The notes beneath the pieces are model-generated. The model made no database searches and had not been told where the DNA came from. It was given only the letters and a program-made list of their open reading frames with translations. Made by a program: the position numbers and the translations under genes. From Escherichia coli (GTDB lineage: Bacteria; Pseudomonadota; Gammaproteobacteria; Enterobacterales; Enterobacteriaceae), in assembly GCF_013122565.1 (NCBI RefSeq), contig NZ_CP053258.1: a stretch of 64,000 nt of DNA; one strand, written 5' to 3'. Every line of letters starts with the position of its first letter. The first letter of the stretch is position 1. Below are positions 8,819 to 12,594 of this stretch, piece after piece.

Positions 8819-9990
8819 GCAGGAAAGAATATTCCTTTATTGAAGTATGTGATATCCAAGGAGGAACTCAGCCTCCAAAGGACGAGTTTGTTTATGAAAA
8901 AAAAGATGGATATATAAGGCTTTTACAAATCCAAGATTTTAAAAGAGAGGATAAAACTGTTTATATTAAGGATAGGCATACTCTGAAAAAATGTAATGAC
9001 GATGATATTCTAATAGGTAGATATGGAGCATCTATTGGAAAAATTCTCTCTGGGTTATCAGGAGCATATAACGTTGCTTTGGTTAAAGCCATCCCTGATT
9101 TAAAAAAAATAAACAAGAGATTTTTATGGCATTTTTTAAACAGTGTAGTATTTCAAGAATTTATAAAAAATGTTTCTACTCGAGCCGCTCAAGCTGGGTT
9201 TAATAAGGATGACTTAGCAAAGCTAAAAATATATTTACCATCTTTAAATGAGCAAGTGAAAATTGCTTCTGTTCTTGATTTATCTGATGCCATACGCAAA
9301 AAACGAGAACAAACTATCAAACTGGCTGATGATTTTTTGCGTGCTACGTTTTTGGAGATGTTTGGTGATCCTGTTGAAAACCCTAAAGGATGGAAAAAGG
9401 ATAAAATAAAAAAAGGTGTGTTAGGCATTGCTTCAGGATGGAGTGCCACTGGAGAAAATATACCCTGTAAATCTGATGAATTTGGCGTGTTGAAAATCAG
9501 CTCGGTGACTTCTGGAGTATTCAAACCAGAAGAAAATAAAGTGGTAGCCTGTGAATCCATTCCCGCTTCAAAAAAACTTATTCACCCTAAAAAGGGAGAT
9601 TTGCTATTTAGTCGCGCAAATACCAGAGAGTTAGTTGCTGCGATATGCATGGTTCATCAGGATTATGACAACCTTTTCCTTCCTGATAAACTATGGTCTA
9701 TTAAGTTAAATCATAAGCTATTGCTACCAGAGTTCTTTCTCATCTTAATACAAAATGAAAAAGTCCGTGAGTTACTAACAAAACAAGCGACCGGAACAAG
9801 TGGGTCGATGCTAAATATATCTAAAAATAAATTTGAAGAAACTGAAATTATCTTCCCAGAGATCAATGTTCAAAAAGATTTTTGCAATACTTTCAGAAAA
9901 ACAATAAATTTGAAAACAAAGTTAATAAAAAGTAATGAATTAGCTAATGAGTCATTTAATTCATTATCTCAAAAGGTATTTCAGCAATGA
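8815..9990 (+). CDS. hsdS: Type I R-M specificity subunit HsdS (391 aa)
   Basis: Position immediately after hsdM with start/stop overlap; AT-rich, Lys/Asn-rich translation typical of S subunits; target-recognition domains not individually verified. Confidence 0.8.
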   Translation: MSRKEYSFIEVCDIQGGTQPPKDEFVYEKKDGYIRLLQIQDFKREDKTVYIKDRHTLKKCNDDDILIGRYGASIGKILSGLSGAYNVALVKAIPDLKKINKRFLWHFLNSVVFQEFIKNVSTRAAQAGFNKDDLAKLKIYLPSLNEQVKIASVLDLSDAIRKKREQTIKLADDFLRATFLEMFGDPVENPKGWKKDKIKKGVLGIASGWSATGENIPCKSDEFGVLKISSVTSGVFKPEENKVVACESIPASKKLIHPKKGDLLFSRANTRELVAAICMVHQDYDNLFLPDKLWSIKLNHKLLLPEFFLILIQNEKVRELLTKQATGTSGSMLNISKNKFEETEIIFPEINVQKDFCNTFRKTINLKTKLIKSNELANESFNSLSQKVFQQ

Positions 9991-11678
9991 AAATTGTTTA
10001 TACACCTGATCGATCCTGGAGAGAAATCCCACCAGCAAAACCAGAACTTGGTGATGTTTTATCTCTGAGCAGTAATAATTGGGATGACTATGGATATAAA
10101 ACTACTCTAAACGCAAAAATATACATTAAGAATCAATCTATTTCATTTGATTTTTCAATTAAATTATTAATTGAAAATATCGATAACACGGCAATAAAGC
10201 TAGATGAATTATGTAAAGATGGATGGGATGGAATATTCCCCATCCCTAATACTAACTATATAGCTCTTCCATCTGATATTGATTTTTATCAAATACTCAT
10301 ATCTAAAATAGGTGAGGAATCAACAGTCAATCTTCTGAATGATCTGAACGATGCAGGTTTCAATAAAAATGTTTACCATAATGAAATATCTAACAGACTC
10401 ATAGAACAAGATGCCTTTAAAACGTCATTACTCCGAGAAAGTGGAGCAAATAAAGCCTATCTAGACGGTTATCTGATATTCCAAAATATTCACGCAGAAA
10501 TAAGAAACTTTCAGTTAAATATTTTAACGAAAAAAGGAGGTGTAAATAAGATACCATTTAAATTTGAATCTAATTTATTGCCTTATGATATTAATGTTAT
10601 TATTGGCCCGAATGGGATTGGTAAATCTCATTGCCTGAAATCACTTGTTGAATATTGGTTGCAAATAGGAATGGGGGAACAACGATTACTTGAAAAGAAT
10701 AAGCATACTCCATTTGATGAACGACCTAACATAAGTAAGCTTGTTCTTGTTTCTTATAGCCCTTTTGAAGAGTTCAGCCTAGATCTAGAAAAAGACAATT
10801 TACAAGATAAAAAGGCATATCAATATTTTGGTTTCAGGCAAATGAGAGATAATGGGACAATTGGTATCAGTCGAAACTTACCAGCTTTAAATTCAAGTGA
10901 GTCATTACTTGAAATGATATCTGATGATAAGAAATACCAATTCATTGAAAATCGAATAAATAAGCTCAACTCTGTCGATTCTGCACTCAAATCTGCTATT
11001 AGCTATGATTATTGTGTTCTAAGATTATCTCCAGAAGATAACTCATCTTATCTCGGGAAAGATATTGTCATAATTGATGGCGAAAAATATCTCCCTGCAG
11101 TAAATATTGTAAAATGGGCTGATCATTTAGATTTAATAAGGGATTCTATACTACTCAATGATGGTGTAATCTTTGTTAAAGATGGGGAAATTGTAAATCT
11201 TAGTTCTGGCCAACGATTATTTGTATATATAGCTATTAATGTTGTCGGTGCAATGAAAGAAAATAGCTTAATTGTGATTGATGAACCTGAATTATTTTTA
11301 CATCCTAACCTTGAAATAGAATTCATTGGGCTACTAAAAAAATTACTTAAATCATTTCGCTCTAAAGCTATTCTAGCTACTCATTCCCTATCTATCACAC
11401 GTGAAGTACCGTCAAAATGTGTACATATATTCCGCTACAAGGATGACGAATTTGAAATAGTCCCCCCGCCATTTGAAACATTTGGCGGTAATGTTCAGAG
11501 AATTTCTTCTTATGTTTTCGGCGATAAATCGATCTCTAAGCCTTTTGATGAATGGCTTGAGATGCAGCTTCAAGCTATTAAAGATCCTGAAAAATTAATT
11601 GAAATGCTAAATGAAGAAATTAATGAAGAAATAATCATGAAAATCATGAGTTTAGGGAAAAAGTATCATGGTCACTAA
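9987..11678 (+). CDS. ABC/SMC-like ATPase with ~200-aa N-terminal extension (PtuA-like; candidate defence ATPase, 563 aa)
   Basis: Walker A GPNGIGKS (aa 207-214, nt ~10604-10627); ABC signature-like LSSGQR (aa 405-410); Walker B LIVIDEPELFLHP (aa 428-440); H-loop ATHS; start overlaps hsdS stop; AT-rich. Confidence 0.75.
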   Translation: MKIVYTPDRSWREIPPAKPELGDVLSLSSNNWDDYGYKTTLNAKIYIKNQSISFDFSIKLLIENIDNTAIKLDELCKDGWDGIFPIPNTNYIALPSDIDFYQILISKIGEESTVNLLNDLNDAGFNKNVYHNEISNRLIEQDAFKTSLLRESGANKAYLDGYLIFQNIHAEIRNFQLNILTKKGGVNKIPFKFESNLLPYDINVIIGPNGIGKSHCLKSLVEYWLQIGMGEQRLLEKNKHTPFDERPNISKLVLVSYSPFEEFSLDLEKDNLQDKKAYQYFGFRQMRDNGTIGISRNLPALNSSESLLEMISDDKKYQFIENRINKLNSVDSALKSAISYDYCVLRLSPEDNSSYLGKDIVIIDGEKYLPAVNIVKWADHLDLIRDSILLNDGVIFVKDGEIVNLSSGQRLFVYIAINVVGAMKENSLIVIDEPELFLHPNLEIEFIGLLKKLLKSFRSKAILATHSLSITREVPSKCVHIFRYKDDEFEIVPPPFETFGGNVQRISSYVFGDKSISKPFDEWLEMQLQAIKDPEKLIEMLNEEINEEIIMKIMSLGKKYHGH

Positions 11679-12594
11679 GTTACAACTTCCCGAATATGAC
11701 TCTATTAAGGTACTCCGAACCATCATTTCAGAAAGAGAGAGATATAAAGATTTCTATGATAGCTTATCGAATGATTGGATAGCACATGTAGAAAGCTATT
11801 TGGAACATCATGGTGATCCACGCTTTATTACACCTCTCGACCTCTCTCTGTATATTTCAGAAGAATTAGTACAAAATGAAGAAGAGAAAACAACTGATGC
11901 CAATAGGCATATATCGGCGCAAGAAAGACTGACGCAAAAAAGGAAACAAACTCTAATTAATTTATACTCTCCTGCTGAGGGGAAAACTCCCTACGATATT
12001 CTTGATACTTTAAGACGAGGACATGGCCTGTTATTTTGCCCATGTTGTGGGGAACCAGGAAAGCCGACAACGTTAGACCATTATTTGCCTAAAACTATCT
12101 ATCCTGAATTAGCTATAATTATTGCTAACTTAACGCCGATGTGTAATGAATGTCAGCAGAATAAAAGTTCTGATTATTTTGATGAGGATGGTAACAAAAT
12201 TTACATACATCCTTATTTTGATCCTATTGAACAAGTTAATTTAATCATTGATATAGAAGAACCCTATGCTACTCCAACATTCAGGCTAAACATTACTGAG
12301 GATGGTGATGATAATGAGATTTATGAATTGCTAAGGCGACATATAAATGGTGTTAAATTTTTAGAGCGATTCGATGAGTTTTGTCGAAATGAATATATGG
12401 CATTATTGCGCACAATGTCATTAGAACGTCAAGATGCTCAACCGGATAGAGCGTCAAGAATAATTTGTCGATTCAAACGCCAATATGAGGGTCAGTCTCC
12501 AAATAGATGGGAGGCTATTTTCTATAGAGGGATATTGAATAATGCCGACCTACTTAATTATCTAGATCATGGAAACTTGCCTGATTTTACATAA
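11668..12594 (+). CDS. HNH-family nuclease (PtuB-like; candidate defence effector, 308 aa)
   Basis: HNH/zinc-finger pattern CPCC (aa 124-127), DH (137-138), N154, CNEC (159-162); start overlaps the upstream ATPase gene by 11 nt. Confidence 0.75.
   Translation: MVTKLQLPEYDSIKVLRTIISERERYKDFYDSLSNDWIAHVESYLEHHGDPRFITPLDLSLYISEELVQNEEEKTTDANRHISAQERLTQKRKQTLINLYSPAEGKTPYDILDTLRRGHGLLFCPCCGEPGKPTTLDHYLPKTIYPELAIIIANLTPMCNECQQNKSSDYFDEDGNKIYIHPYFDPIEQVNLIIDIEEPYATPTFRLNITEDGDDNEIYELLRRHINGVKFLERFDEFCRNEYMALLRTMSLERQDAQPDRASRIICRFKRQYEGQSPNRWEAIFYRGILNNADLLNYLDHGNLPDFT

Follow-up and report, generated by a model that had tools for sequence, protein, structure and literature searches.

A probable Septu-like member of the PDC-M01 family, an ATPase-HNH gene pair behind hsdS in an Escherichia coli leuX island

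What are two AT-rich genes doing directly behind the specificity gene hsdS of a type I restriction-modification (R-M) locus in Escherichia coli, and does their attachment to that locus carry a function or reflect mere co-transfer? The question is raised by a 64,000-nucleotide (nt) stretch of contig NZ_CP053258.1 (RefSeq assembly GCF_013122565.1), called the window hereafter, in which genes for an ABC ATPase and an HNH nuclease follow hsdS. A first-pass annotation had put the pair forward as an undescribed two-gene defence module, being either a divergent form of the Septu system (PtuA/PtuB) or a distinct ATPase-nuclease system. We consider it likely that the pair is a Septu-like (PtuA/PtuB-type) module of the catalogued family PDC-M01, carried as cargo at the 3ʹ end of an hsdM-hsdS unit in an island integrated at leuX. 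Family membership, closest folds, intact catalytic motifs, the strict adjacency of both genes and their independence from type I R-M across most lineages are direct outputs of the tools used, and they carry this reading.

The two genes are intact, overlapping open reading frames (ORFs) that occupy the positions originally assigned to them, and share 11 nt:

9987..11678, + strand: PtuA-like ABC ATPase (PDC-M01A), 563 amino acids (aa), ATG start; PADLOC PDLC04238
11668..12594, + strand: PtuB-like HNH nuclease (PDC-M01B), 308 aa, ATG start; PADLOC PDLC04270

Because full-length homologues at 40-58% identity exist across many genera, this ORF pair with its motifs is, judged from sequence, far beyond what chance would produce. 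The description of the module as undescribed does not survive a search of PADLOC-DB, a check that the first-pass annotation had itself proposed. Residues 1-559 of the ATPase match positions 1-562 of the 564 in the PDC-M01A profile PDLC04238 (E = 4.6e-239), and residues 1-307 of the HNH protein match positions 1-279 of the 280 in the PDC-M01B profile PDLC04270 (E = 1.4e-107). Since both proteins are matched end to end, they fall within a candidate family that was already catalogued. The gene order of that family, A then B, adjacent and co-oriented, is found both in the window and in 55 loci that are described below.

PDC-M01 derives from the work of Payne et al. (bioRxiv 10.1101/2024.01.29.577857), who took cassettes lying within BREX, DISARM and type I R-M loci, looked for them across RefSeq and curated them into 145 ‘phage defence candidates’ that were then added to PADLOC. 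The setting in which the family was discovered, as cassettes in or attached to such loci, is also that of the window pair. Two cassettes, with 964 and 245 homologues, are assigned to PDC-M01 in the supplementary table of that study, and among the entries examined in this ‘guilt-by-embedding’ table, PDC-M01 is the first-numbered multi-gene candidate and the one with the highest count. The window pair is an ordinary member of PDC-M01, as nothing was found that sets it apart from the family. Its family, genomic context and link to Septu are already present in public databases, and therefore the pair is not new as a discovery. A literature search by RefSeq protein accession, and for experiments on PDC-M01, returned no characterisation of the family or of these E. 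coli proteins.

Both proteins retain their catalytic residues. Conservation was evaluated in an alignment of 23 ATPase homologues with identities down to 50% (A1) and another of 27 HNH homologues (A2), which together extend to approximately 40-50% identity. The ATPase motif set and the HNH core named by the first-pass annotation are all present where claimed and are invariant in these alignments:

10605..10628, + strand: Walker A motif GPNGIGKS, aa 207-214, including K213; invariant in A1
11268..11306, + strand: Walker B / D-loop LIVIDEPELFLHP, aa 428-440, including D432, E433 and H439; invariant in A1
12022..12177, + strand: HNH zinc-finger core, aa 119-170, with C124/C127, D137-H138, N154 and C159/C162; invariant in A2

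The ATPase motifs LSSGQR (aa 405-410) and ATHS (aa 464-467) are likewise invariant, and the motifs of the HNH core lie at aa 124-127 (CPCC), 137-138 (DH), 154 (N) and 159-162 (CNEC). Pfam places AAA_21 at aa 202-470 of the ATPase, with AAA_15 also matched, and in the HNH protein identifies a marginal HNH domain and no domain outside of aa 124-168. As a separate observation, the ATPase head has a distant relative in the Ea59 protein of phage lambda, with 26% identity across aa 189-511 (E = 7e-13).

The link to Septu emerges most clearly from structure prediction combined with a Foldseek search of the PDB, which had also been proposed at the outset. AlphaFold2 models were obtained with predicted confidence (pLDDT) values of 84 for the ATPase and 89 for the HNH protein. 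The 40 best ATPase matches are all PtuA proteins from Septu or type I-A retrons (E values down to 4e-9), and the best structural match of the HNH protein is PtuB, with similarity that reaches well past the HNH core. Like E. coli Septu (PDB 8EE7, 8EEA and 8SUX), the window pair encodes an ABC ATPase followed by an HNH nuclease, bears a C-terminal helical extension on the ATPase and conserves the catalytic residues of both proteins; moreover, the architecture of its ATPase is covered by the PADLOC PtuA profile PDLC00282. That profile matches the window ATPase with an E value of 7e-48 in two stretches, corresponding to the N-terminal domain and the C-terminal half, with scores below those of PDC-M01A. 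When compared directly with the ATPase, solved PtuA chains are recovered with E values of about 1e-4 by single sequence and 3e-8 by profile, and AriA is the next sequence relative in the PDB (E = 1.7e-4 by profile). A survey of Bacillus cereus genomes reports genes that PADLOC labels as both Septu and PDC-M01 (PMC11811056). The relationship is weak in sequence and clear in the predicted fold and, of the two options originally offered, the evidence favours a divergent Septu over a distinct system.

A second group of PtuAB proteins resides in type I-A retrons (Retron-Eco7/Ec78 and Ec83), from which the window pair differs in having neither a reverse transcriptase nor an msr/msd RNA. The gene directly upstream of the pair is hsdS, and Rfam finds tRNA alone in window positions 1-17000, with no match to any other RNA family, retron noncoding RNA included.

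The most conspicuous departures from stand-alone E. coli Septu are located toward the N termini. The Walker A lysine is K43 in PtuA, whereas K213 of the window ATPase is preceded by an extra domain of approximately 170 aa. Similarly, the catalytic histidine of the HNH protein (H138) lies 63 residues later than its counterpart in E. coli PtuB (H75), which implies an N-terminal extension on this partner as well. The domain on the ATPase has the following location:

9987..10502, + strand: N-terminal domain, aa 1-172, beta-rich and then helical, with the motif NWDDYGYKTT; defined from the AlphaFold2 model and conservation

Pfam leaves aa 1-195 of the ATPase without a domain, and a profile of the N-terminal domain (A3) yields no match in the PDB. 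Among 1.84 billion proteins, this same profile recovers at least 1,777 cluster representatives at E ≤ 1e-3, with 498 at E ≤ 1e-10. All full-length proteins among the best 150 matches present the domain, then Walker A and then Walker B. Walker A begins near residue 190-240 in most of these proteins and ranges overall from about 166 to 349, with the latest position occurring in proteins that have extra N-terminal sequence. The NWDDYGYKTT motif is kept as far as Firmicutes. Each of ten distant members has its highest score with a PDC-M01A profile, and most also match PDLC00282 nearly full length (for example, residues 3-496 on positions 3-509 of 520, E = 3e-96). A pair from a Bacillus plasmid behaves in the same manner on both sets of profiles, and the N-terminal domain of the window ATPase alone matches PDLC00282 positions 21-135 (E = 2.9e-10). 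Because the profile matches share one architecture, and because the PtuA profile covers it, the late Walker A belongs to a large and already indexed clade on the edge of Septu and is not an oddity. Thus, the late position that had been noted as a departure from Septu is real, but it is typical of its clade. The flanks of the HNH core had been described as beyond assignment and are indeed blank in Pfam; the C-terminal part is helical in the model (residues 217-301), and the structural match to PtuB continues past the core.

Two further segments of the ATPase may bear on its assembly into a complex:

11466..11525, + strand: invariant block PPFETFGG..QRISSYVFGD, aa 494-513; 15 of 20 residues invariant in A1
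11541..11675, + strand: C-terminal three-helix extension, aa 519-563; helices at 519-531, 534-544 and 547-561 in the AlphaFold2 model

The first is the most conserved stretch outside of the ATPase motifs, yet residues 496-516 have pLDDT values below 50 in the monomer model, a combination which suggests that the block becomes ordered only within a complex. It aligns with ‘PPIQTKGSE’ of the PtuA chain 22bu_B. In solved PtuAB assemblies, the paired C-terminal extensions of PtuA clamp the helical C-terminal domain of PtuB to form a nine-helix bundle, and retron PtuA binds its partner via an N-terminal extension (PMC12819146). By analogy, aa 519-563 of the window ATPase are a putative docking site for the HNH protein.

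Variation among alleles is consistent with this assignment. Enterobacterales alleles of the pair are visibly recombinant mosaics in which the last 23 ATPase residues (aa 541-563, positions 11607-11675) follow the HNH allele and not the rest of the ATPase. Where the HNH allele shows 99% identity, this tail shows 100%; in the four loci with HNH alleles of 70-86% identity, it shows 66%. An ATPase insert at aa 320-400 (positions 10947-11186 for aa 321-400) shows 37-42% identity in the allele from sequence type 131 (ST131), whereas its flanks show 80-100%. The co-variation fits an interface at the C-terminal tail of the ATPase, and the insert fits a variable sensing surface.

From these features and the solved relatives, the most likely mode of action can be proposed by analogy. 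The ABC ATPase would dimerise or form higher oligomers via its ATP-binding heads, and its C-terminal three-helix extension would clamp the HNH protein by its helical C-terminal domain to keep the nuclease silent. A phage-derived cue, probably sensed through the family-specific N-terminal domain or through the variable stretch between aa 320 and 400, would shift the state of the ATPase and release nuclease activity against DNA or tRNA, such that growth arrest or abortive infection would result. Released PtuAB has been found to nick DNA and to target tRNA-Tyr in cells, and is toxic when deregulated (PMC12819146). For stand-alone Septu, the Walker A, Walker B and HNH residues are needed for defence, and tRNA-Tyr is cleaved (PMC13096335).

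Several observations weigh against a Septu-like module. In sequence, the ATPase resembles solved PtuA weakly and over its C-terminal half alone. The NCBIfam PtuA equivalog gives 45.6 bits against a cut-off of 500, and global TM-scores to PtuA are near 0.3, values that are low because the domain arrangement differs or because the model is a monomer. For the HNH protein, nothing relevant was recovered from the PDB by single sequence or by the 27-sequence profile, and no NCBIfam model was matched even at E ≤ 10, including TIGR02646, the family of solved retron PtuB chains. These sequence-level results distinguish the pair from type I-A retron PtuAB as well as from stand-alone Septu. The co-variation between the ATPase tail and the HNH allele could be explained by plain physical linkage. 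The complex, its stoichiometry, its trigger and its substrate are all drawn by analogy. Payne et al. call their candidates untested, and a 2025 preprint excluded them as ‘unvalidated’.

Does the pair depend on the R-M system beside it? The distribution of homologues indicates that in most lineages it does not. A scan of one genome per species, supplemented by lookups of individual homologues, yielded 55 loci in which the ATPase gene is directly followed by the HNH gene, spread over Gamma-, Alpha-, Beta- and Epsilonproteobacteria, Acidobacteria and Firmicutes. Only six of these, all from Enterobacterales (E. coli, Chimaeribacter, Lelliottia and Rouxiella), have hsdRMS directly upstream; hsdM-like genes occur within 10 kb, on the opposite strand, in three of the remaining 49. 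Across the 55 loci, neither a conserved third gene next to the pair nor any R-M linkage outside of Enterobacterales was found. The pair stands alone between housekeeping genes in Aeromonas, whereas the Vibrio copy has AbiJ, a STAND-protease pair and a TIR protein as companions in an integrase-bounded island. Full-length relatives are also found in PHROG families and on plasmids. Because the two genes are adjacent in all 55 loci and hsdRMS is directly upstream in six alone, the pair is an autonomous module that is independent of type I R-M in most lineages. Among 5,426 complete E. coli genomes, 64 carry it, in islands at leuX or selC and in ST131.

The surroundings of the pair in the window are those of a defence island, as the first-pass annotation had recognized, with a full hsdR gene present in addition to hsdM and hsdS:

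3707..7120 (approximate), + strand: hsdR, type I restriction subunit, 1137 aa; PADLOC REase_I PDLC03047, full length, E = 3e-274 (start coordinate from the RefSeq annotation of this locus, L001)
7133..7152, + strand: terminator-like, GC-rich hairpin followed by a T run, between hsdR and hsdM; consensus scan, 8 pairs of which 6 are G-C
7184..8818, + strand: hsdM, type I methyltransferase; PADLOC MTase_I PDLC03021, full length, E = 2.5e-192
8815..9990, + strand: hsdS, specificity subunit; PADLOC Specificity_I PDLC03119, 1-391, E = 6e-140
12843..13847, − strand: DUF4365/DUF1817 protein, a neighbour outside of the pair; RefSeq product name in L001
14151..15419, − strand: P4-like tyrosine integrase of the island; NCBIfam PRK09692, E = 1e-80, under cut-off
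15619..15703, − strand: tRNA-Leu(caa), the island attachment site; ARAGORN and Rfam

The hsdR product also matches PRK11448 and an EcoAI-type model in NCBIfam, both under cut-off. An ATGA sequence at 9987-9990 overlaps the hsdS stop codon with the ATPase start codon. The hairpin is a putative terminator on the basis of pattern matching, and hsdR is probably carried on a transcript apart from that of hsdM-hsdS. Since hsdS overlaps the start of the co-oriented ATPase gene and the hairpin separates hsdR from hsdM, the phrase ‘fused onto the hsdMS operon’ used in the annotation is apt. The GC content is 0.32-0.35 over hsdS and the ATPase-HNH pair, compared with 0.50-0.53 in hsdR and hsdM. Beyond the pair, the island ends with the DUF4365/DUF1817 gene, the P4-like integrase and tRNA-Leu(caa).

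Comparison with other E. coli genomes reveals that the position behind hsdS is not reserved for the pair. The same hsdR-hsdM backbone occurs in 427 of the 5,426 genomes, with nt identities of 90-99% overall and of 95-99% for 417 of 428 records, and in related loci the hsdS alleles are 66-75% identical whereas hsdR and hsdM are 94-99% identical. The slot after hsdS was inspected in one locus for each type of cargo (L089 10967-13485, L090 11189-14303 and L091 11056-12687). In L089 it is occupied by a different ABC ATPase, which begins 8 nt after hsdS and has PDC-M55A, NsnB and AriA as its best PADLOC matches, together with a 298-aa protein; this pair matches 274 E. coli genomes, its position after hsdS being known from that one locus. 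The other types of cargo are a C-N hydrolase cassette, represented in 17 genomes including E. coli W, and a small ORF followed by a PDC-S08 5ʹ-nucleotidase. Because different genomes carry different cargo there, the stretch from hsdS to the integrase (window 9990-12843) is a variable cargo slot, or hotspot, in E. coli.

The 298-aa protein (L089 12589-13485) has no PADLOC match, and BLASTP shows no relationship between it and the HNH protein. Copies at ≥99% identity occur in about 270 E. coli genomes, and the protein looks like an uncharacterised effector.

Attachment to hsdS could nonetheless have functional meaning in Enterobacterales. One version of this idea, which we judge unlikely, is that the pair guards the R-M system, remaining inactive while HsdMS(R) is intact and firing when a phage anti-restriction factor such as Ocr, ArdA or a Stp-like protein disables the type I enzyme. 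Precedents exist in PrrC with EcoprrI and in PARIS with Ocr (PMC12707154), which likewise place an ABC ATPase-based effector beside type I R-M, and AriA of PARIS follows PtuA among the PDB sequence relatives of the window ATPase. The spacing between hsdS and the ATPase gene is also suggestive, as it never exceeds 4 nt (an overlap or a gap of 1-3 nt) despite divergent hsdS alleles, and the different ABC ATPase and its partner lie 8 nt behind hsdS in the same island family. However, 49 of the 55 loci have no hsdRMS directly upstream, whereas PrrC is found almost exclusively embedded in type I R-M loci. The N-terminal domain and all other parts of both proteins are conserved with or without R-M, and the same slot also accepts an unrelated C-N hydrolase and 5ʹ-nucleotidase. 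The effector in the window is an HNH protein and not an anticodon-nuclease or Toprim domain as in PrrC or PARIS. A related proposal, to which we assign a similarly small probability, is that Enterobacterales recruited the pair, and separately the unrelated ABC-ATPase pair in the same slot, as a second line behind type I R-M that is co-translated with HsdS and triggered by anti-restriction proteins according to the logic of PrrC and PARIS. The overlap with hsdS most likely does no more than couple the pair to the R-M system in expression and transfer.

It is quite improbable that the pair represents a separate system that merely resembles Septu, in which an ABC ATPase and an HNH nuclease were independently joined and follow another logic of assembly or triggering. 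Such a system would account for an HNH protein without detectable sequence homology to PtuB, for the N-terminal extensions on both proteins that stand-alone E. coli Septu lacks, and for the decision of PADLOC curators to keep PDC-M01 distinct from Septu. Convergence is made unlikely by the structural searches, in which PtuA and PtuB are the best matches of the two partners and the PtuB match extends beyond the HNH core; in addition, the PADLOC PtuA profile aligns with members of the family over their whole length and the ATPase carries a C-terminal helical extension of the kind that PtuA uses to bind PtuB. The least likely rivals are roles outside of defence and a role as additional R-M subunits. 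A selfish stabiliser of the island that acts like a toxin-antitoxin system, or a DNA-repair ATPase-nuclease pair, would fit with the toxicity of deregulated PtuAB, the location of some copies between housekeeping genes, and a 2-nt frameshift in the HNH gene of the closest E. coli genome, as expected of a costly gene. We regard these roles as very improbable given that the pair is patchily distributed (64 of 5,426 E. coli genomes), that it occurs in integrase-bounded islands beside R-M, AbiJ, TIR and other defence genes, that relatives reside on prophages and plasmids, and that its closest characterised relatives are all anti-phage systems. Finally, the operon position of the pair directly after hsdS might indicate that its products join the type I enzyme as further subunits, which would use HsdMS for target recognition in place of HsdR. 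This is extremely unlikely, as 427 E. coli genomes match hsdR-hsdM and 64 match the pair, and it was rejected because hsdR is intact and most homologues are found without hsdMS.

If the Septu-like pair is active, it would provide the first phenotype for PDC-M01 and, once confirmed, would extend Septu to a large clade with a dedicated N-terminal domain that could plausibly act as a sensor. In E. coli, a conserved hsdRM backbone with exchangeable cargo behind hsdS offers a convenient natural test of whether attachment to hsdMS carries function or reflects mere co-transfer.

Several neighbouring genes in the island also merit mention. The DUF4365/DUF1817 protein matches, over aa 11-142, the PADLOC profile Aga_REase-PNTD1-PNTD2, which describes pAgo-associated nuclease proteins (E = 5e-23), gives a weak match to PDC-M02A and is fragmented in ST131; it may be a separate single-gene defence candidate. 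The N-terminal ~200 aa of HsdR (aa 1-205, positions 3707-4320), which lie ahead of the nuclease and helicase parts, match PADLOC PDC-M16A (E = 2e-40). Upstream of hsdR, positions 595-3216 on the − strand encode a WYL-domain protein, a GTPase-family protein and a hypothetical protein, and according to the annotations of L001, L090 and L091 these three genes travel with the island in several E. coli genomes.

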